Positions 3,428-51,929 of a DNA stretch of 64,000 bases are shown here, one piece after another. The stretch is from the NCBI RefSeq assembly GCF_001677475.2, contig NZ_CP015229.1, one strand, 5' to 3'. Within the stretch, counting starts at the first letter, position 1; each line of letters opens with the position of its first letter. The notes beneath the pieces were generated by a model. It saw only the letters and a list, made by a program, of their open reading frames with translations, was not told the origin of the DNA and did no database searches. This DNA is from Escherichia coli. GTDB lineage: Bacteria; Pseudomonadota; Gammaproteobacteria; Enterobacterales; Enterobacteriaceae. Both the position numbers and the translations under genes were made by a program.

Positions 3428-4663
3428 ATGGCGCTGTCTGATGCGTGGTTGCGTTCAGTCGTTGGAAAGGAACGTGATAAGGTTTTGGTTAAATCCGATC
3501 GTGATGGTCTGTCTGTCAGAGTATCACCGAAAGGTCGCGTAGTGTTCCAATATCGTTATCAATGGGCAGGGAAAGGTGAGCGCCTTGATATCGGAACTTA
3601 CCCGGCAACTGGATTAAAAGAGGCCAGAGAAGAAGTTATCCGTCTCCGTGGTGAACTCGAGTCAAACCGCAATCCACGATTAGTCAAGCAGGCTGAAAAA
3701 CGAAAAGCTACTGAAGCCATGACGGTAGAGTCTGTGATCCGTGCCTGGTATGAAGCATATTGTGTAAAAAATAAAAAAGGTTCTGAACAGATACTCCGCT
3801 CGTTTGAGCTGCACCTGTTCTCTAAAATCGGGAATATCCCTCACGATGCAGCTACATTGCATGATTGGTTAGAAGTCCTGGAGCCTCTTAGCACCAAGAC
3901 TCCAGCAATAGTAGACCGATTGCTAATTAACGCAAAGCAGGCTCATGTCTGGGCGTATAAGAGAAAGCTCATTGAAACTCGCCCACTGTCGGATATCACG
4001 GGTAAAGATATGGATATCCGTAAAGGTCAGAAAAAACGGTTTCTGACACATGATGAAATTAACATCCTTTATGCTGCGATCGATGGTTCTCGAATGGTTC
4101 CTAAATACCGAGCCTTCATTAAACTATTGCTGCATTTTGGTTGCCGTAGTTCAGAGCTAATTACTGCTAGGGTGGATGATTTTGATTTCATAAATAAGGT
4201 ATGGACTGTACCACCAGAACGACATAAGACTGGGGACATAACAGGCGAACCGCTAAAGCGGCCCATTATTGAACCGGTTGAAGAGCTTATAAAATACGTT
4301 ATCTCTATGAACAACGGTTCCGATATGCTTTTTACTAAGGAAGGAAGCAGGGAGCCAGTTGGTCGGACATCATTGCAGTCGCTGCCTTACAATTTAATGC
4401 AGTTCGCATGGCGACGTTTGGGGTATCAATTTCCTCATTGGTCTCTTCATGATTTGAGACGAACAGCACGAACAAACTTTTCTGATCTTACTGCTCCTCA
4501 TATTGCTGAAATAATGCTTGGTCATAAACTGCCAGGTGTATGGCAAGTTTATGATAAGAGCGATTATCTAGAAGAACAGCGTAAAGCTTACTGGGCATGG
4601 TGGGAGAGGGTTGAATCGATCGTTACTTGTACTGACTTAATCTCCAACGGACAGTTTGCGTAG
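3428..4663 (+). CDS. int: Tyrosine integrase, P4-type (N-terminal arm-binding domain plus catalytic domain)
   Basis: 411-aa ORF directly inside attL; C-terminal HDLRRTARTN and catalytic Y region typical of tyrosine recombinases; SD AAGGTGAG before ATG. Confidence 0.9.
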   Translation: MALSDAWLRSVVGKERDKVLVKSDRDGLSVRVSPKGRVVFQYRYQWAGKGERLDIGTYPATGLKEAREEVIRLRGELESNRNPRLVKQAEKRKATEAMTVESVIRAWYEAYCVKNKKGSEQILRSFELHLFSKIGNIPHDAATLHDWLEVLEPLSTKTPAIVDRLLINAKQAHVWAYKRKLIETRPLSDITGKDMDIRKGQKKRFLTHDEINILYAAIDGSRMVPKYRAFIKLLLHFGCRSSELITARVDDFDFINKVWTVPPERHKTGDITGEPLKRPIIEPVEELIKYVISMNNGSDMLFTKEGSREPVGRTSLQSLPYNLMQFAWRRLGYQFPHWSLHDLRRTARTNFSDLTAPHIAEIMLGHKLPGVWQVYDKSDYLEEQRKAYWAWWERVESIVTCTDLISNGQFA

Positions 4664-4821: not shown

Positions 4822-5955
4822 ATGAATTATGAAAAATATCATAGCACAAACAGAAGCAAGGGTTTGCGAACCTTCTGCTACTTAATTTATTATGTGCAGG
4901 TGATTTTTAATGTGATGAAGTGTTTTATGACTCGCGGAAACTTTGATTTTATAAACTCTAACGTGGTTTTCTCAGAAGCCGATAAGTCATTGTGGATTGA
5001 TCTCATTAACACCGATTGTATTTGGTATGATATGATAATTAATCCTCCTGATGATATAAGAACAAATAAGATAATAAAGAACTATCTCAGAATTATGGAA
5101 AAATATACGAGGGAAAGCTGTGAAAAGAGATTTATTTATTTCTTAGGTTCAAGAAAAAAAGTGAGGTTTTCAACCAAGAAACAGCCTAGGTATAACCCAT
5201 TCACAAAAAATATAGTATTCACTCTGTTGATTGGCAAAGAAGAGCGAAAGCTTCGGATAAAATATTCCTTTTGCACGTTTACGCAGAATGGGGTAGTGAA
5301 GGTAACTCCAAATGTTAGAGTAACTGAGAAGTTTCTCTACATTGAATATGAAAATGGCAATTTATGTGTGATGTCAGTTCATGATTTCGTAAACGGACAT
5401 TATATTGATTTAGGAATTCATACAGAAGTGCATTACGTAGGATATACACGTCATCCGCATCGGCGCCCTGTTGATTTTATTCACCGTGGCTTATCAAAGA
5501 TGCTGTATAGCGTTTCAAATGACGATAATGATTTTTTTGTTTGTTTTAGTATATTTAATCCAAGGATTATATCTCTGAATAATAAATGTAATGTGGTCTT
5601 TAATATTTCAAATTCTCTACTGGATGAAATTGATGTTGATAATGAGGGGAGAATTATTGAAAACTGCTTAATACGTTACTTTGATCCTAAGCTTCAAGAT
5701 GATGACAAGGAAAGTAAAAGGTCAGATTTAAATAAAATGTTTATGGACCTGGTGGAAAATAAAAAAATTAAAAAAATATACGTTAATTTTCAATATGAAA
5801 GGAATAATGAGTATTTCTGCTTTTACTCTAAAGTTGTTCCGCCGAAATTTCATCATTTCTTTGTGTTGGATTTTTCTGATGGCAAGATAAATATTGATAG
5901 AGACCAGGATATGATGACTCAGATGGCATTGTGCATGGGGTATTATAATTATTAA
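4822..5955 (+). CDS. Hypothetical protein, strongly AT-rich cargo gene between int and xis (function unknown)
   Basis: Single uninterrupted 377-codon ORF with N/K/I/F-rich composition, much lower GC than the flanks; alternative in-frame ATG at ~4915 has a better SD. No motif I can assign. Confidence 0.55.
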   Translation: MNYEKYHSTNRSKGLRTFCYLIYYVQVIFNVMKCFMTRGNFDFINSNVVFSEADKSLWIDLINTDCIWYDMIINPPDDIRTNKIIKNYLRIMEKYTRESCEKRFIYFLGSRKKVRFSTKKQPRYNPFTKNIVFTLLIGKEERKLRIKYSFCTFTQNGVVKVTPNVRVTEKFLYIEYENGNLCVMSVHDFVNGHYIDLGIHTEVHYVGYTRHPHRRPVDFIHRGLSKMLYSVSNDDNDFFVCFSIFNPRIISLNNKCNVVFNISNSLLDEIDVDNEGRIIENCLIRYFDPKLQDDDKESKRSDLNKMFMDLVENKKIKKIYVNFQYERNNEYFCFYSKVVPPKFHHFFVLDFSDGKINIDRDQDMMTQMALCMGYYNY

Positions 5956-6164
5956 TATTTCGCCTGATGCCAACTCAAAATCTTTTTTGTCGCATCCATT
6001 GTGGATTAATATTCAGAGGTAAGGGGTATCTGCGGAATTTATATTTTGCAGGATGAGCATACAATACATGATATAACATCTGTTTTTGGCACAGAGCATA
6101 TAGTCAGATTATGTTTAGTTCTGTGCCATAGATGGATATTATCTCACCTCTTGGCTAACTCTCA

Positions 6165-6359
6165 TTACTCAATAACTCCAGCAAATCTGTATATTTTGCG
6201 TGATGCCCATTTATTTGGGCAGGATTTAATATCAGGATCTGGAAAATCTGGCCTGTATTTCTGGCCTGTCCTCCTGTTTACGCTGTTCCAGCGAAGCACC
6301 GTCGATATTGAAACGCCACAGAATTCGGCGACTTGTTTTGTTGTCATTAAGTTGCTCAT
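6165..6359 (-). CDS. xis: Excisionase / AlpA-family small DNA-binding protein
   Basis: 64-aa ORF MSNLMTTKQVAEFCGVSISTVLRW..., winged-helix pattern of the AlpA/Xis family; SD GGAGGGG upstream; last gene of the leftward operon. Confidence 0.6.
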   Translation of the reverse strand: MSNLMTTKQVAEFCGVSISTVLRWNSVNRRTGQKYRPDFPDPDIKSCPNKWASRKIYRFAGVIE

Positions 6360-6393
6360 TGCTACCCCTCCAGCGGTTGTTCAGTTGAAAGAC

Positions 6394-6930
6394 TCATGCG
6401 CATGTGCGTAACTCCGATAACTCGTTAAAGCGTTCCATAAACATCCCGTAGGCATGGCCTGGCGACAGTGGAATAACTTTGAACATCTCTGTGGCAGAGA
6501 TGCCTTCCAGTACTGGCCAGAAAGAGCCATCATCAAGCCCGAGATCGCGGCGTTCGGTTGCCAGCATGATGAGATCGGCATATTTCACGGGTGTACTCAT
6601 AACCGGGGGTAACCCGTATTTCTCACGGATTACTGTGTCTATTTTTTCTTCCATCCGTTTATAGTCAGGAAGAAAGCGTTTCAGTGGTGCGGGGATGTCC
6701 TGGCAATACGCTTCTGTTGCATCATGCATTAACGCTTCAAAAGCAAATTCCTGCGGTACCAGCTGGCTGCAAAGCACCGCATGTTGGGCGACGCTGTAGA
6801 AGTGTGAAAGATGACCGGCAAAGCGACAGATATTTGAAAGGGAAACCGCGATATCGTTAATATCGATGTCGTCTTTATTTATCCTGTCATAATAAAAATG
6901 CTTCCCGGAAAAAGTTTTAATAAATGACAT
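6394..6930 (-). CDS. HD-domain phosphohydrolase, YfdR-like (5'-deoxynucleotidase family)
   Basis: HD motif (ALMHDATEAY); N-terminus MSFIKTFSGKHFYYD with SD GGAGAA chosen at 6930 rather than the track start 6957. Confidence 0.75.
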   Translation of the reverse strand: MSFIKTFSGKHFYYDRINKDDIDINDIAVSLSNICRFAGHLSHFYSVAQHAVLCSQLVPQEFAFEALMHDATEAYCQDIPAPLKRFLPDYKRMEEKIDTVIREKYGLPPVMSTPVKYADLIMLATERRDLGLDDGSFWPVLEGISATEMFKVIPLSPGHAYGMFMERFNELSELRTCA

Positions 6931-7057
6931 TTTGTTCTCCACGTATATGCGTTGCACCGTGCTGAATTCTGGTAAAAGGAAGCCCTCACCATCTGGCGAT
7001 TATTGGGTAAATTATGTTGACATAAATGCCCCCGCAGGGGCATTTGCAGTAATGAAA

Positions 7058-7882
7058 TCAGGCGGTGAAAGTACCAATAAAGGTTTCTACTTTGCTGTCT
7101 TTGAATTTCTCAACAAGCAGATCACGAAATTCGTTAGCCATTTCTTCCTGCACCGCTTCCAGCTGAATAATGCGCAGAACCAGTACAGGACGATCGCCAG
7201 TGATAATGCTGAGGCGTAATTTAAACGGACGTTCTTTCAGACCTTCAAACGGAACGCATTTAAATTCAAATGCCACTGGCATAATGTCTTTGGTCTTCGC
7301 TTCGACAGACTCCATCAGGGAGCGTTTGCCGCTGAAGTCATTATCTTCAAAATCAGCGGTCTGGTTCGCTTCAATTGTGATTTTACGGATCGCCGCAGCC
7401 GCTTTGGTTGCCTGAATGGCGTCACCATTAGCATCAAAGCCCACAAGGTAGTCGGCCCAGTCTTCAATCCATTCTGCCAGTGACTTCTGGGAGTTACGCT
7501 CGCCGTTAACAGACAACAGGGCAGAGAACGGTGCTGTCTTTTTCAGTTTGAGAGTGGCGGTGTTATCTGCGTGACCTGGTTCATCAATAGTACCCAGGTT
7601 AAGCACACTGACTGCTCGCATATTATCGGCATCGATAAAGCAGCGGGTGCCTTCATCTGCAAGATCTTTAGAATAACGGGTAAAGTCATCGATGCTGGCA
7701 GTGGAAAGCGCACCACGGAAACGGAAGCGATTTAAATTAAATTTTTCCAGATCATGAATGCGGAAATTCTCAGGCAATGCCACAGCATCGGCACCAATCT
7801 TACTGATAATTTCATTAACACCCTGAGCAGAAATAAGGGCATGGATTTGATTAATTGCGGTTGCGTCTAAGTTCTGAGACAT
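7058..7882 (-). CDS. YfdQ-like (DUF2303) prophage protein
   Basis: 274-aa ORF; recalled similarity to KplE1 YfdQ; same operon as the YfdR-like gene. Confidence 0.6.
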
Positions 7883-7947
7883 AATAAGTCCTCACTATAT
7901 AAAGATATTCAGTGATGAGATAAATAATCGGTTAATTAAGAACGATA

Positions 7948-8310
7948 TTAATGACCTGCTGCGCGGAGTTTTCCGTCAGGTTCACCGGCAAGAGTCAGTA
8001 ATTGTCCCTGGTCTTCCTGCAGAATAGTCAGGCGACCACCGCGATTGACATACATCGGCGTTTCGGTGGTGTCTTCTTCGGAAATTTTCCCGCGGTTAGT
8101 CGGGCGAACATATGAGAGTTTGTGTTTGATTTTCACACGGTTCTCATCAAATGGTTCGATTTCCAGGTTGAGTGAGACCTTACCTTTGGTTTTCGTGTTC
8201 ATCACACCTGAAGCGACTTCACTGAGAACTGCGCCGATTTTGGTTTCAAATACGCCGCCGTCCAGCTCCCCGATAAATGCCTGCACATCAGTACTGCGTT
8301 CGCTAGCCAT
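7948..8310 (-). CDS. YfdP-like prophage protein (120 aa)
   Basis: Track ORF trimmed to internal ATG at 8310 (MASERSTDVQ...) preceded by SD GAGGAG; synteny with yfdQ/yfdR-like genes. Confidence 0.5.
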   Translation of the reverse strand: MASERSTDVQAFIGELDGGVFETKIGAVLSEVASGVMNTKTKGKVSLNLEIEPFDENRVKIKHKLSYVRPTNRGKISEEDTTETPMYVNRGGRLTILQEDQGQLLTLAGEPDGKLRAAGH

Positions 8311-8944
8311 TTTGCTGCTCCTCATCATATCGACCCTGCAAGGTCGGTTGGTTTCTCCACAAAACAGAGAAGAACACCTGCGGTGGCAGCCGCCCGGATG
8401 GATTGGGTTATGAGCCCGTCGTCCGGTGATGCTCTTCTCTGTTTTGTAAAAAGAGCGGTACCAGCCGGAAGCAAGTGTACAAACTGGTACCGCCAAAGCA
8501 GTGGCTGTTGTGGTGACCGGTGCTGATCTCCGGCTTGCGGTTATTTCAGACTCTCACGGGTGTTTAATTGCCCCGCCGAACAGCTCTTTTCCGCAATAGC
8601 TGCAATGTCTTTCGCGCATCAGCCTGCGCATTCACCACAACGCTGAGAGCACTTAGCCAGTTACGGCACCACACTTTGTCGCGGTTCCATAAATGCCCTC
8701 ATCGTTGCACCCTGGTCTCTTCCCAGGTGTCAAACCGAACCGCCACGCTGGTTAGGCGTCTTATCAGCATCATCATTGACTTGCACATTCCGGCTACCTG
8801 GTTTGTTTGCCCGAGCAAGGAGTGGATTGTCCCCTTTAACGTCCCCAGACCGCTAACGACGCATGTGCCATACGCCGTGTTACAACCAAATTTTGTTAGT
8901 ACCTTGTTTGTTGGTCTGGAAAGAAAGATAAAATGAAGTTGCGC

Positions 8945-8985
8945 ATTATGCAAGTGTTTTTGTTGCGAGATATGCAATTTGATGG
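8945..8985. promoter_or_regulatory. Putative OL operator/PL promoter region (TTGCG-N5-TGCAA palindromes)
   Basis: TTGCGCATTATGCAA and TTGCGAGATATGCAA immediately downstream of the cI terminator; the same half-site recurs in the cI-cro intergenic region. Confidence 0.4.
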
Positions 8986-8989
8986 GTAA

Positions 8990-9012
8990 TGAAAAGCCAC
9001 CTTCGGGTGGCT
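8990..9012 (-). terminator. Rho-independent terminator downstream of the repressor gene
   Basis: GCCACC-TTCG-GGTGGC stem-loop followed by a U-run on the minus strand. Confidence 0.6.
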
Positions 9013-9032: not shown

Positions 9033-9725
9033 TTAATTGTGTCGCTTAAGGGTTTGTGACTGGCTGATTAAGACCTTTCCAAAGACCATAAACCGGTGTT
9101 CATTTTCGCTGGTAATTCCCCATTCACGGTAAATCTGGTTATCAGAAATCACCAGTAGTTTGTCAGGTATCATTTGCAGTCGTTTGACATAAATTTTATC
9201 ATCAAAACCAAATACATAGATACCATCTCCATCAAACTGATTGATACTGACATCAACGAAGATGAGATCTCCTGGCTCAATGGTTGGACACATACTGTCC
9301 CCACGAACGTTGATTACTTTAATGTGATTTGCTGGCCGTCCGCCAAACATCGATACAGCATTATCAGTTCTGTATTCAATGGCATGAATCACATCAATGA
9401 CATCACCGCCCTGGATAAGGCCATTTCCCGCACTGGCACTGATATCCAGCATTTCAATACGGAATACATCCTTCACCTGCGCAACATCCTCACTAATACT
9501 GTTTTTACATACAGTATTACTTTTGAAGTCTGAGGTAAAGAGATCAGCAATATCAACACCTAAGCTCCTGGCAATATTACTCAGGGCTTGTTCAGTGAAT
9601 TGTTTCTGCTTACCTGTTTCCAGGCGCGAGATATTTGCCGCATCCACTCCTATTGCTTCAGCGAGATCGGCGATTTTCATGTTCTTCGCTTGGCGAAGTT
9701 GTCTGACTCGATTTCCTATGTTCAT
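9033..9725 (-). CDS. CI-like repressor (N-terminal HTH, C-terminal S24/LexA-type autopeptidase)
   Basis: 230-aa ORF; HTH (MKIADLAEAIGVDAANISRLETGK) and S24 peptidase motifs (GDSM ... KRL). Confidence 0.85.
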   Translation of the reverse strand: MNIGNRVRQLRQAKNMKIADLAEAIGVDAANISRLETGKQKQFTEQALSNIARSLGVDIADLFTSDFKSNTVCKNSISEDVAQVKDVFRIEMLDISASAGNGLIQGGDVIDVIHAIEYRTDNAVSMFGGRPANHIKVINVRGDSMCPTIEPGDLIFVDVSINQFDGDGIYVFGFDDKIYVKRLQMIPDKLLVISDNQIYREWGITSENEHRFMVFGKVLISQSQTLKRHN

Positions 9726-9729
9726 GCGT

Positions 9730-9822
9730 TTATTACATTTCTTTATTGCGCGTTAAGCAAATCAACTTGCGCAAAATATTTGCGTGAAATAATATGCTCA
9801 TCACGCAATATGTGGAGGTTAT
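9730..9822. promoter_or_regulatory. Divergent promoter/operator region between cI and cro (OR-like)
   Basis: Repeated TTGCGCAA / TTGCGTGA ... TCACGCAA palindromic half-sites between divergent genes. Confidence 0.5.
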
Positions 9823-10083: not shown

Positions 10084-10627
10084 GCATCACTGGAAAGTGG
10101 AAAAACAGCCTGAGTGGTACGTGAAAGCTGTCAGAAAAACTATCGCGGCGTTGCCGGGGGGTTACGCTGAAGCTGCTGAGTGGCTGGATGTAACAGAGAA
10201 CGCTTTATTCAACCGCCTTCGTGCAGATGGCGATCAGATTTTCCCGCTGGGATGGGCAATGATTTTACAGCGCGCTGCTGGCACTCACTACATTGCGGAT
10301 GCTGTCGCACAGTCTGCTGGTGGGGTGTTTGTATCGCTTCCTGAAATTGAGGAAGTAGAGAACGCCGATATAAACCAGCGCCTGCTGGAAGTCATCGAAC
10401 AAATCGGGAGTTACTCAAAGCAGATTCGTTCGGCAATCGAAGATGGGGTAGTGGAGCCACACGAGCAGACAGCAATTAATGATGAGTTGTATCTGTCGAT
10501 TTCGAAGCTCCAGGAGCATGCGGCACTGGTCTACAAAATTTTCTGCGCTCCAGAAAAGAGTGACGCCCGCGAGTGTGCAGCTCCGGGCGTCGTGGCGTTT
10601 TGTGTCTGTGGAGAAACTAACGCATGA
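10076..10627 (+). CDS. YdaT-like protein (CII-position regulator of Rac-type immunity regions)
   Basis: 183-aa ORF overlapping the cro-like gene; GTG start with SD AGGAG; position and size match racR-ydaS-ydaT arrangement. Confidence 0.55.
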   Translation: MGKHHWKVEKQPEWYVKAVRKTIAALPGGYAEAAEWLDVTENALFNRLRADGDQIFPLGWAMILQRAAGTHYIADAVAQSAGGVFVSLPEIEEVENADINQRLLEVIEQIGSYSKQIRSAIEDGVVEPHEQTAINDELYLSISKLQEHAALVYKIFCAPEKSDARECAAPGVVAFCVCGETNA

Positions 10628-10772
10628 ACAGTTTAACGGCAAATAACCGTTTGTCGCAACAGCTGGTGGTCAGCGTCTCTGAACACCTGTTGTTACGGCA
10701 TGAATGCAGATTACCAAATCACCAGGCTGTAAGTAACCACAGAGAACTTTACCTGACTGTGGGGGGCGAGTT

Positions 10773-10952
10773 GTGCAGGAACTTAACCGCTGGTTTCGTG
10801 ACGGAAGAGGGCTTTATGTTCATGTTATTCGTTGGGAACCAGAAACACAGCGCGTTATCTATCTTCGCAAAGACTACCCGCATGAGTGCTTTAGTCCTTT
10901 GTGGAAATTCAGGCGTGATTTTGTTGAGTGTGACGGACCACCAACACATTGA
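10773..10952 (+). CDS. Hypothetical 59-aa protein (GTG start), upstream of a terminator
   Basis: GTG preceded by GGGGGG; ORF MQELNRWFRDGRGLYVHVIRWEPETQRV...; below the track length cutoff; hand-translated. Confidence 0.3.
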   Translation: MQELNRWFRDGRGLYVHVIRWEPETQRVIYLRKDYPHECFSPLWKFRRDFVECDGPPTH

Positions 10953-11037
10953 TTCTGCCATTCCGGGACGTTACACTGTTCAGGCACCTTATAAAACGGG
11001 TGCCGGGCGTGGAAACCCGGAATTCACCAAAGCGCAC

Positions 11038-11060
11038 AACCGCGCTCTTGCGGTTTTTTT
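11038..11060 (+). terminator. Rho-independent terminator (tR1-like) containing a boxA-like CGCTCTT
   Basis: AACCGC-GCTCTT-GCGGTT stem followed by TTTTTTTG. Confidence 0.5.
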
Positions 11061-11229
11061 GTGTCATGAGCAGCATTACGCCCAAATTATGGTGGGGCGT
11101 GCAGGGCCAACTTCGGTTGGGCCGGGTTCTTTGGTGACCGGTATTTCCACCCCTGTACGTCTCACCACCAATAAGGTCGTGGAAAGCCTTGGTGGTGAGT
11201 TATTAAAAATCACCAAAGAGGCTGCCATC

Positions 11230-11775
11230 ATGGCTACGATCCCAACCCTCACTCAACCTGAAATTGCCATCGTTGATGGTCAGGTTGTTACTTCATCCCT
11301 GGCTGTTGCCAACTTCTTCTCCAAACGTCATGACGATGTACTGAAAAAGATCCGCACGCTTGAATGCTCAGCATCATTCACTGCCCGCAATTTTTCGGTG
11401 AGTGATTACACTGATTGCACAGGTCGCAAACTTCATTGCTACCAAATCACACGCGACGGTTTTGCGTTTCTTGCTATGGGTTTCACGGGTAAACGTGCTG
11501 CCCAGTTCAAAGAGGCATATATCAATGCCTTTAACCAGATGGAGAAACAGCTTTCAAAGCCCGCTGTACCGAGCGACGTTGCACATAACGCCAGCGTTCT
11601 CTGTTCCTACATTTCATCAATTCATCAGGTCTGGCTGCAGCAGCTTTATCCTATGTTGGCAAAAGCCGAATCTCCGCTGGCTGTTAGCTTATATGATTAT
11701 ATTAATGATGCTTCGGCGCTGGCCTGCCTCATAAATTTGTCGCTGAACCCTTCAGAGGTAAGGGGGCGCAAATGA
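11230..11775 (+). CDS. Rha-family phage regulatory protein / antirepressor-like
   Basis: C-terminal part of track ORF 10624..11775; start set at MATIPTLTQPEIAIVDGQVV with SD AAAGAGG; Rha-like N-terminus. Confidence 0.6.
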   Translation: MATIPTLTQPEIAIVDGQVVTSSLAVANFFSKRHDDVLKKIRTLECSASFTARNFSVSDYTDCTGRKLHCYQITRDGFAFLAMGFTGKRAAQFKEAYINAFNQMEKQLSKPAVPSDVAHNASVLCSYISSIHQVWLQQLYPMLAKAESPLAVSLYDYINDASALACLINLSLNPSEVRGRK

Positions 11776-19294: not shown

Positions 19295-19594
19295 AAAAAT
19301 TCCTTAATACTGATAACTTGGCGCACTATACACACGTTCCTGAAGAAAGCTATAGTTTTTTGATGGGGTTGAAGATGGCTGGATGTCTAAAATAAACATT
19401 GCTTCATATGTTCAACTATGCGTTAATGATTGCGTCGGTTTGAAGAACAGACGATATACGAAGTAGTTTACTAAAGCAGTTCTCATTTCAGGTGTTATTC
19501 ACTTATTCCTTCTTTGAGTCTCTCCAATTAAGTACGAAGTCGTTTCTGTTATACAAGCCATTTATGCCGAAAGGCTCAAGTTAAGGAATGTAGA

Positions 19595-19810
19595 ATGTCA
19601 AATAAAATGACTGGTTTAGTAAAATGGTTTAACGCTGATAAAGGTTTTGGCTTTATTTCTCCTGTTGATGGTAGTAAAGATGTGTTTGTGCATTTTTCTG
19701 CGATTCAGAATGATAATTTTCGAACCTTATTTGAAGGTCAAAAGGTTACCTTCTCTGTAGAGAGTGGTGCTAAAGGTCCTGCAGCAGCAAATGTCATAAT
19801 TACTGATTAA
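19595..19810 (+). CDS. cspB: Cold-shock protein CspB
   Basis: 71-aa [44 protein letters not shown]...; near-identical to recalled CspB; divergent from the cspF-like gene as in Qin. Confidence 0.9.
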
Positions 19811-20092
19811 AATTAATAGTTTGTCTGTATACGATAACGAAGAAGGCTGATGCCTGAGTGGAGATACAGACAGAGTGGTGAATATTGGATCTCTTTAATA
19901 AATAGTAAGGAGATCCAATACATGAAACAATGGCCAGCATATTTGGCAATAACTTAATCAGGAAAAGTATGCTAACCATTGTGGTGAAGTGCAGGTTTGC
20001 TGCATGAATAGTTTTACAGCAGAAGCTAACTGCTAGCATAGCAAAACAAAGTGCGTAAGTGGATGACTCCCACAAAAAGCACCACAATATTA

Positions 20093-22683: not shown

Positions 22684-23045
22684 ATTAATATTAAATCGGA
22701 TTATTTTTAGCGCTGAATGTGAAATTTAAATAAAAAGGACTCTTCCATGAGTCAAAATCCTTGAAATCTTAAGGGTAAGATAAAAGGTCATTAGACAGAA
22801 TGACACGTTTTATTAATAAATAAAGCTATTGTTTCATTCGTGTGTTTTTCTTTACAAAAGTAATCCTTGCTATGGTTGGTTAATCATGCGTTAATGGTGT
22901 TCTGGTTTGTTACAAAATTATCTGAAGCAGTCATTGTTATAATTTTATTATTTGTACCTCTTGAGATTTCCTTGTTGGTTTTTCTCTCTGATATTTTTTT
23001 CGGACCATTCTGCCCAAGGGCTAACTTCTTCAAAAGGTAATAATG

Positions 23046-23258
23046 ATGTCTAACAAAATGACTGGTTTAGTGAAATGGTTTAACCCTGAAAAAGGTTTTG
23101 GTTTCATCACGCCGAAAGATGGTAGCAAAGATGTGTTTGTCCATTTCTCAGCTATTCAGAGCAACGATTTCAAAACGTTAACTGAGAATCAGGAAGTCGA
23201 ATTTGGTATTGAGAACGGACCTAAAGGCCCCGCGGCTGTTCATGTTGTGGCACTTTGA
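23046..23258 (+). CDS. cspI: Cold-shock protein CspI
   Basis: [70 protein letters not shown] matches recalled CspI. Confidence 0.9.
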
Positions 23259-23461
23259 GGTAGAAAATATTACAAACCATATTCACTTTAGATGCCCGTG
23301 TTGCCATGGTTCTCAGTATAGAACATCATCTTTTGATGTTTCTGACAGGAATCCTTTCGGGGCAAAATGTATCTTTTGTAAATCAATGATGATTACATTT
23401 GATAATATTTCACAATACTTAAATGTTAGCCGTCTGTCGTTAGATTTAAGAAAGTGAAAAT

Positions 23462-51353: not shown

Positions 51354-51929
51354 ATGGATTTCAGAATGAGTGAACAACCACGGACCATAACAATTTATAA
51401 TCTGCTGGCCGGAACTAATGAATTTATTGGTGAAGGTGATGCATATATTCCGCCTCATACAGGTCTGCCAGCAAACAGTACCGATATTGCACCGCCAGAT
51501 ATTCCGGCTGGCTTTGTGGCTGTTTTCAACAGTGATGAGGCATCGTGGCATCTCGTTGAAGACCATCGGGGTAAAACCGTCTATGACGTGGCTTCCGGCG
51601 ACGCGTTATTTATTTCTGAACTTGGCCCATTACCGGAAAATGTCACTTGGTTATCCCCGGAAGGGGAGTTTCAGAAGTGGAACGGCACAGCCTGGGTGAA
51701 GGATACGGAAGCAGAAAAACTGTTCCGGATCCGGGAGGCGGAAGAAACAAAAAACAACCTGATGCAGGTAGCCAGTGAGCATATTGCGCCGCTTCAGGAT
51801 GCTGCAGATCTGGAAATTGCAACGGAGGAAGAAATCTCGTTGCTGGAAGCATGGAAAAAGTATCGGGTATTGCTGAACCGTGTTGATACGTCAACTGCAC
51901 AGGATATTGAATGGCCAGCACTGCCGTAG
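51354..51929 (+). CDS. tfa: Tail fibre assembly protein Tfa
   Basis: [41 protein letters not shown]... matches recalled lambda Tfa; SD GAGGTG upstream. Confidence 0.9.

Follow-up and report, generated by a model that had tools for sequence, protein, structure and literature searches.

The yfdPQR cassette of a lambdoid Escherichia coli prophage and a predicted tRNA-like RNA structure in its leader

The stretch analysed here, hereafter the window, covers 64,000 nucleotides (nt) of the Escherichia coli contig NZ_CP015229.1 (assembly GCF_001677475.2) and carries a prophage inserted beside yjjG. We studied four genes of this prophage, all on the minus strand: yfdP (7948-8310; 120 amino acids; PF27127 / phrog_204), yfdQ (7058-7882; 274 amino acids; DUF2303, PF10065), yfdR (6394-6930; 178 amino acids; HD-domain phosphohydrolase) and, as the last gene of the leftward unit, the excisionase gene xis (6165-6359; 64 amino acids). 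The gaps between them are 65, 127 and 34 nt. An earlier note on this DNA had described a leftward YfdP-like protein, a DUF2303 protein and an HD protein followed by an excisionase, a layout with which both gene calls and profile matches agree. The range it gave to this module, 6394-8310, corresponds exactly to yfdP, yfdQ and yfdR, but xis, with which the module was said to end, lies outside it. The open reading frame (ORF) of yfdR extends mechanically to a GTG at 6957. For yfdP, the start at 8310 is backed by the edge of homology with K-12 at 8329 and by a ribosome-binding site, GAGGAG, at 8318-8323. We also considered an in-frame N-terminal extension (a 182-amino-acid ORF from TTG 8496) and rejected it: it overlaps the structured RNA described below, its translation does not resemble a protein, and the homology edges and ribosome-binding site favour the ATG at 8310.

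Profile searches, which the note had called for, identified the families of the four proteins. YfdQ matches Pfam DUF2303 with E = 6e-93 and 311 bits against a cut-off of 26.6, its residues 7-272 aligning with positions 2-269 of the 269 in the profile. YfdP belongs to the family of phrog_204 (1.2e-49); a direct Pfam profile search gave no match for it, and its PF27127 'YfdP' label comes from the 99%-identical cluster P0121 and from YfdQ neighbours in other genera. YfdR is recovered by phrog_318 (1.7e-108). Xis matches phrog_1553 'excisionase' over its full length (1e-34), Pfam HTH_17 and NCBIfam Xis_Gifsy_1 being reached below threshold only; this match and its position, separated from the integrase by 1.5 kb and a single cargo ORF, identify it as the excisionase. 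PADLOC gave no match for YfdP, YfdQ or YfdR. In the RefSeq chromosome NZ_CP041304.1, which is 100% identical, xis is unannotated.

The cassette is already known, since it is annotated in RefSeq, is widespread, and has been described in the literature both for its K-12 copy and as a cluster common in the early-left operons of lambdoid phages (PMC12315714). Compared with CPS-53 of K-12, the proteins are 99.2% (YfdP), 99.6% (YfdQ) and 94.9% (YfdR) identical, and the DNA homology forms one block of 1942 bp (window 6388-8329) with 96.8% identity. Several RefSeq E. coli chromosomes are 100% identical over window 6000-8700 and name the genes yfdP, yfdQ and yfdR. The same interval is matched in 3153 of 5426 complete E. 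coli genomes, 1253 of which hold at least 80% of the query, and the Escherichia phage PhiR63_1 is 100% identical over the queried window 6100-8500. This agreement exceeds chance by far. The cassette itself thus adds little, being a widespread and annotated prophage module.

The neighbouring genes place the cassette in an operon of the lambda type. Upstream of it, on the same strand, lies a gene for a cI-like repressor (9033-9725) with a helix-turn-helix domain and an S24 peptidase domain (Pfam Peptidase_S24, 6.6e-19; HTH_3, 1.1e-10), called an XRE family regulator in RefSeq; cro-like (HTH_3) and CII-like (CII/CP76) genes are divergent from it. Directly 3' of the cI stop codon, a terminator scan found an intrinsic-terminator-like hairpin on the minus strand (8995-9012, AGCCACCCGAAGGTGGCT followed by TTTCATT). 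Two 15-bp operator-like palindromes TTGCN7GCAA (8939-8953 and 8963-8977) then mark a putative OL/pL region, and a third copy (9746-9760), located between cI and cro, is OR-like. This motif occurs seven times in the whole window, against 2.4 expected by chance, and three of the seven are these OL and OR sites. Read along one strand, cI is followed by the terminator, the operator-like sites, a leader of ~630 nt, yfdP, yfdQ, a hairpin, yfdR and xis, with ~720 nt devoid of annotated genes between yfdP and the cI-like repressor. Because the TTGCN7GCAA sites look like OL and OR and cI lies upstream, the cassette is predicted to make up the body of an early-left operon of the lambda type. A promoter scan between cI and yfdP returned no consensus promoter, and -35 and -10 boxes could not be convincingly placed by eye, so that the position of pL is inferred. 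Before xis this left operon consists of yfdPQR alone, and a canonical Rec module is absent from it. The ~440 nt that separate the operator-like sites from the leader terminator (window 8500-8938, minus strand) are 94-95% conserved in Stx2c phages and in phage 2H10; we found in them no convincing ORF, no profile match and no N-like gene, a 92-amino-acid ORF at 8699-8977 being unsupported.

The three genes travel together. When mapped against K-12, SfV, Stx2c phages, 2H10 and a Klebsiella prophage, the edges of homology delimit a mosaic block, from window 6388 to ~8497, which is exchanged among phages as a unit while its neighbours vary on both sides. The order P-Q-R is kept in 80 near-identical E. 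coli viral contigs, while what follows yfdR differs between them (yfdS, yfdT, two kinds of xis); among phage relatives the downstream genes likewise include yfdS, yfdT, Eae and different xis genes. The three proteins have diverged to a similar degree (53-63% identity) in prophages of Klebsiella, Serratia and Xenorhabdus, where the cassette again comes just after cI.

The earlier note had treated the three genes as a single module: they are adjacent here, but yfdP and yfdQ are the fixed part and yfdR is optional. We compared 66 loci from ~60 species. YfdQ follows YfdP immediately in 64 of them, whereas yfdR is present in 42 (directly after in 38, nearby in 4) and absent from 23, including every locus outside Enterobacterales. 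Written as locus patterns, these are PQR 38, PQ- 23, PQr 3, Pqr 1 and P-- 1. From these counts, yfdP-yfdQ is an obligate pair and yfdR a frequent add-on. No constant gene replaces yfdR after yfdQ in the loci that lack it; the neighbours are xis/int, an exonuclease, a methyltransferase, a YqaJ-like gene and others. Two further observations agree with a P-Q core. A GC hairpin of 8 bp (AAAUGCCCC-UGCG-GGGGCAUUU, 7025-7044, minus strand) stands directly 3' of the yfdQ stop codon and may be a partial terminator or a stabiliser separating yfdPQ from yfdR, and in K-12 yfdPQ is listed as an operon apart from yfdR (PMC9181523). The yfdQ-yfdR intergenic region was also considered as a structured RNA and rejected, since it gives z = -0.5 and only the local hairpin.

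YfdQ has a homologue in the PDB, entry 9o7m 'YfdQ Protein' (phmmer E = 8e-45), of 274 amino acids and with 36 chains in the entry, for which our literature search turned up no associated publication. The AlphaFold2 model of YfdQ has a mean predicted local distance difference test score (pLDDT) of 76; a Foldseek search with it against the PDB (entries to April 2026) did not return 9o7m. For YfdP, a profile search of the PDB sequences found nothing. Its model consists of two helices and a three-stranded sheet, and for its most conserved segment (SEEDTTETPMYVNRGG...QEDQGQL) the prediction is of low confidence, which would fit a partner-binding tail.

We next turn to YfdR. The earlier note had taken the loss of the HD residues as the observation that would speak against its proposal; these residues are in fact kept. 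A search of 1.84 billion cluster representatives (E <= 1e-3) returned 22,804 hits, from which 87 full-length and diverse representatives, mostly 40-60% and at most 67% identical to the query, were aligned. R36, H50, H69, D70, E73, D78 and D119 are 97-100% conserved in this set, the metal ligands H50, H69, D70 and D119 reaching 98-100%, which places YfdR in the HD phosphohydrolase superfamily. The HD/E/D/D positions align with those of YfbR. Phage records with a member of the family number 333; their hosts are many, and large phages of Caulobacter, Bacillus and Pseudomonas are among them. Since the HD residues are kept and the family is spread across very different hosts, YfdR is, as predicted from its sequence, almost certainly an active metal-dependent phosphohydrolase. 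The relationship to YfbR itself is distant. YfdR scores 26.1 bits against Pfam YfbR-like PF12917 (cut-off 25.9), over 64 of 182 profile positions, and 21.4 bits against the NCBIfam equivalog NF003009, whose cut-off is 122, so that it falls outside the YfbR equivalog. Its closest relative of solved structure is the uncharacterised Atu1052 (PDB 2gz4, E = 2e-13), YfbR (2paq) being reached with only E = 0.39. We also noted six members of the YfdR family (P0361, P0367, P0368, P0374, P0400 and P0405) of 350-400 amino acids with two matched HD stretches, which are either tandem duplications or fused gene calls.

The activity that has been characterised, in the 95%-identical K-12 protein, is DnaA binding. 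Noguchi and Katayama (2016, PMC4776307) found that K-12 YfdR binds domain I of DnaA in a Phe46-dependent manner and competes moderately with DiaA and DnaB, and that yfdQ and yfdR together with yfdS or yfdT inhibit initiation at oriC when present in extra copies (PMC4776307). A tblastn search of the 64-kb window found no homologues of yfdS, yfdT or torI. The minimal gene set for inhibition in K-12 is thus incomplete here, where only yfdQ and yfdR of the set yfdQ-yfdR-(yfdS or yfdT) are present, because both yfdS and yfdT are absent.

Taken together, the best explanation, to which we give a probability of about 0.6, is that the prophage carries a lambdoid early-left yfdPQR cassette with a role in the early takeover of the host, acting on DNA replication and nucleotide metabolism. 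In the sequence of events that we propose, inactivation of the S24-type repressor would allow leftward transcription through or past the leader terminator, and the transcript would make YfdP and YfdQ, then YfdR, then Xis. A complex of YfdP with YfdQ is probable, in which YfdQ would be a large oligomer, in keeping with the 36 chains of 9o7m. YfdR would act as a metal-dependent phosphohydrolase and, in phages of enterobacteria, would also engage DnaA, with YfdQ as its required helper. Host takeover at the level of replication and nucleotide metabolism would then be the most likely role of the cassette. This prophage may not reproduce the full inhibition phenotype of K-12, since yfdS and yfdT are missing.

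Several points weigh against this explanation. The operon promoter was not found by the scan and a terminator precedes the cassette, the timing of expression being read from position. In K-12, deletion of yfdQRST gives no phenotype in normal growth and is without effect on initiation, which is inhibited only at raised copy number (PMC4776307), and purified YfdR alone is not inhibitory in vitro (PMC4776307); a physiological role of the cassette in initiation is unproven. In addition, proteins of the YfdR family occur without yfdPQ in phages of hosts far from E. coli, which argues that an enzymatic activity, and not DnaA binding, would be ancestral in the family. Lastly, the structural models are of little help: structure searches with the YfdQ model gave no informative fold neighbour, and the YfdP model is poor (pLDDT 66).

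One alternative, which extends the proposal of the earlier note, is that YfdR is mainly a 5'-deoxynucleotidase which reshapes the pools of deoxynucleoside mono- and triphosphates early after induction, YfdP and YfdQ being unrelated passengers. All catalytic HD residues are kept, together with the YfbR-type E and D downstream of HD, and the wide distribution of the family among phages, as well as the name deoxynucleotidase given by RefSeq and PHROG, point the same way. However, these names are transferred labels, and we found no substrate test behind them. The match to Pfam is marginal and partial, and the score falls far below the YfbR equivalog cut-off. The nucleotide affinities reported for YfdR lie far below YfbR's, and its function, in the words of the authors, 'remains elusive' (PMC4776307, citing Zimmerman 2008). 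The conserved HD site of that proposal stands, whereas its assignment as a deoxynucleotidase acting on nucleotide pools is possible but doubtful.

The leader between the operator-like sites and yfdP has features of its own. Counted from the yfdP ATG, homology to SfV and to the Klebsiella prophage, whose YfdP, YfdQ and YfdR are ~60% identical, starts ~185 nt upstream. The 221-nt yfdP leader folds at z = -6.2 relative to shuffled sequences. Three elements follow one another on the minus strand. The first, at the 5' edge of the mosaic block (8448-8494), was read from the sequence as an intrinsic-terminator-like hairpin, GGCGGTACCAG ... CTGGTACCGC, followed by TCTTTTT. The second is a predicted three-way-junction RNA of 89 nt (8359-8447), built from stem P1 (20 bp), arm P2 and hairpin P3, the last of them variable. 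The third, just upstream of the yfdP ribosome-binding site, is a GC hairpin (CGACCTTGCAGGGTCG, 8331-8346), of which other genera keep the structure with different sequences.

We aligned 19 distinct leaders from different genera. The RNAalifold structure pairs 97.6% of the cells, a share that drops to 41-56% once partners are shifted by 1 to 3 columns, and compensatory double changes are present in 13 of 40 pairs, against 5.8 ± 1.3 in 500 shuffles, none of which (0/500) reaches 13. A covariance model, R1, finds a single copy in the window, with a score of 98.4 bits for the minus strand against 42 for the plus strand, and invariant G-U pairs favour a structure of the junction at the RNA level, on the sense strand. 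Rfam 15 gave no match to the element, even at E <= 5, and our literature searches found no description of it. The junction at 8359-8447 is predicted to be a conserved RNA structure, apparently undescribed. In Serratia, Yersinia, Proteus, Providencia and Xenorhabdus the long stem of the leader is kept and the apical domain is different. A nut site or a put RNA is not supported as an explanation of the leader: boxA, boxB and an N gene are absent, and the right operon holds no further copy.

The terminator is also conserved. Other Enterobacterales have a hairpin and a T-run at its position, with compensatory changes in the arms. At least 18 of 61 relatives carry, in the loop of the terminator, a Shine-Dalgarno sequence and then an ATG-TTC mini-ORF, which is two codons long (M-F-stop) in some of them and runs through the 3' arm in others; the copy in the window has a shorter loop without this insert. 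The mini-ORF is seen, for example, in locus L093 at ~3840 (-161 from the yfdP ATG), and likewise in L119, L127, L128, L140 and others. Such a terminator with its mini-ORF may be a translation-coupled attenuator, and the upstream leader terminator of the window could act as an attenuator.

The apical part of arm P2 resembles the initiator tRNA. It forms a stem-loop GGG/CUCAUAA/CCC, with the same stem and loop in the single-sequence fold, and is near-invariant, ACGG(G)CUCAU(A/U)NCCCAAUC. A run of 14 nt (CGGGCUCAUAACCC) is identical to the anticodon stem-loop of the tRNA-fMet encoded by metY of K-12. In the window, ARAGORN finds only a tRNA-Leu (1-87), and the Rfam tRNA model gives no match to the element. 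As judged from these comparisons, the leader element is tRNA-like, not a tRNA, with only the anticodon arm in common with tRNA-fMet.

Related elements were observed elsewhere. In the Klebsiella phage GZ7 (2509-2574 of locus L159) there is an unannotated tRNA-like element with the same CUCAUAA core, a 7-bp acceptor-like stem and a 3' ACCA, directly after tRNA-Asn and tRNA-Arg and downstream of Q; vB_Kpn_Chronis (2509-2574 of locus L160) has the same element at the equivalent position after tRNA-Asn. In Hafnia alvei (3870-3943 of locus L136), ARAGORN predicts a tRNA-Gly(ccc) at the position of the three-way junction, and Erwinia typographi (locus L105) has a T-arm-like fragment at the leader position. 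Because the Hafnia tRNA-Gly sits where others have the junction, the comparison points to the leader as a slot that accommodates tRNA-like cassettes.

We tentatively propose, while considering it less probable than its opposite, that the leader encodes a structured RNA which copies the anticodon arm of the initiator tRNA, has a core that recurs in Klebsiella tRNA clusters, and may be an independent functional RNA. It may serve as a decoy for, or a sensor of, nucleases or factors by which tRNA-fMet is recognised; alternatively, it may be a device for RNase P or RNase III processing or for translation control of the early-left transcript. Should the leader RNA prove real and functional, it would represent a new class of phage RNA derived from the initiator tRNA, with a bearing on tRNA-targeting immunity and phage countermeasures, and on the control of the early-left transcript in lambdoid phages that lack N. 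It is the one item of this locus that might surprise a specialist, and it is directly testable.

The decoy or sensor could also be part of a larger scheme, in which cassette and leader together form a counter-defence unit, the tRNA-fMet-like RNA being directed at tRNA-targeting nucleases and the proteins neutralising host immunity. The early-expressed position, the conserved leader RNA with its mimic of the initiator-tRNA anticodon arm, the same RNA core in the tRNA cluster of Klebsiella phages and the predicted tRNA in the same slot in Hafnia are all consistent with it. Yet this support is purely circumstantial, and our literature searches gave no paper tying these genes to a defence system. 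Moreover, proteins and RNA are found apart: Marinobacter and similar loci have the proteins without the RNA, and GZ7 has the RNA, with no yfdPQR found in the 18.6 kb examined, which include the early-left operon. We consider such a unit unlikely.

We regard as quite unlikely that YfdP and YfdQ, with or without YfdR, constitute a recombination or DNA-end-handling module in the slot of lambda exo/bet/gam. The left operon indeed has only these genes before xis and no canonical Rec module, and DUF2303 genes lie beside ssb, RecT/YqaJ or exonuclease genes in VvAW1, in JC1 and in some of our loci. In JC1 the DUF2303 protein gp10 co-purifies with virions banded in caesium chloride, and its authors suggested that it associates with DNA (PMC9144972). 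But the cluster is not restricted to phages without a Rec module, being also present in ArgO145, which has a complete and separate one, and a recombinase role was judged unlikely (PMC12315714); our fold searches, too, brought up no known annealing protein or nuclease. That the genes serve the lysogen (stress tolerance) and not the lytic programme is very unlikely, as expression in K-12 is from a rearranged yfdO/yfdP spacer that is not homologous here (homology ends at 8329) and as the genes here stand behind repressor operators and a terminator. For the same spacer we set aside the regulation of yfdP by SrsR (PMC9181523) as irrelevant to this prophage, the K-12 spacer with the SrsR boxes not being homologous to the window.

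Beyond the leader RNA, three refinements may be of use for work on the cassette. One is the invariant functional pair yfdP-yfdQ with yfdR as a detachable enzyme gene. Another is that the prophage, naturally without yfdS and yfdT, is a ready-made test of whether yfdQR alone affect DnaA, and the third is the 36-chain assembly formed by a YfdQ homologue in the unpublished PDB entry 9o7m.

The rest of the window contains other features. On the plus strand, convergent with xis, lie a tyrosine integrase gene (3428-4663; Pfam Phage_integrase, 5.9e-17; Arm-DNA-bind_3, 2.1e-16) and, between it and xis, the cargo ORF of 377 amino acids (4822-5955), in a region where the GC content is 0.30-0.34 (window 5001-6000). 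The cargo ORF matches phrog_7779, of unknown function, and has no match in Pfam, NCBIfam or PADLOC; phage 2H10 has another hypothetical gene in a comparable slot. Rightwards, Rfam isrK (10984-11060, plus strand) and C4 antisense RNA (11085-11172, plus strand) matches fall inside a 383-amino-acid ORF (10624-11775), the 'Rha family phage regulatory protein' of RefSeq. They point to a c4/ant immunity region of the P1 type and to a coding-sequence call that extends too far. Two cspA-thermoregulator Rfam matches (19434-19873 and 22889-23304; 159 and 111 bits) are ~3.5 kb apart, the first in a low-GC stretch (0.36-0.42 around 19-20 kb), and an Rfam IS009 small RNA match is located at 51697-51895.

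Among known systems, CPS-53 (KplE1) of K-12 has the same three genes in the same order, also followed by an excisionase. It differs by yfdS, yfdT and ypdJ, which stand between yfdR and the recombination directionality factor gene torI and are all missing from the window prophage. The Xis of the window belongs to a family unrelated to TorI, with no similarity to it, and the two integrases are only 23% identical. K-12 also lacks the conserved leader: homology stops 19 nt upstream of the yfdP ATG, and a rearranged yfdO spacer bound by SrsR (PMC9181523) takes its place. The same triad, following cI and preceding xis/int, belongs to the early-left operon of the lambdoid phages LLS, ST64B, phiNP and ArgO145 (Genome Res 2025, PMC12315714), as well as of SfV (orf32-30), mEp460, cdtI and the Stx2c phages. 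Of these, SfV, mEp460, cdtI, the Stx2c phages and ST64B have the leader element too. Compared with these lambdoid relatives, only the flanking genes and the immunity region differ, and the phage of the window has the shortest version, in which yfdR abuts xis. At the protein level, YfbR of E. coli (PDB 2paq) has the HD fold and the H...HD...E...D...D pattern in common with YfdR, but the sequence similarity is limited to ~60 residues and YfdR also binds DnaA.

For the leader, the comparison is with the N-leader of lambda and with the leader of metY-rimP-nusA-infB, which are long and untranslated, contain a terminator or attenuator, and have before the first ORF a perfect stem of ~20 bp, the size of an RNase III substrate; in the metY operon the initiator tRNA precedes such stem sites. 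The leader of the window differs from that of lambda in having no boxA/boxB match and no N gene, and it has no sequence homology to the metY region beyond the 14-nt match in the anticodon arm. Unlike in the metY leader, its predicted tRNA-like part is embedded inside the long stem.

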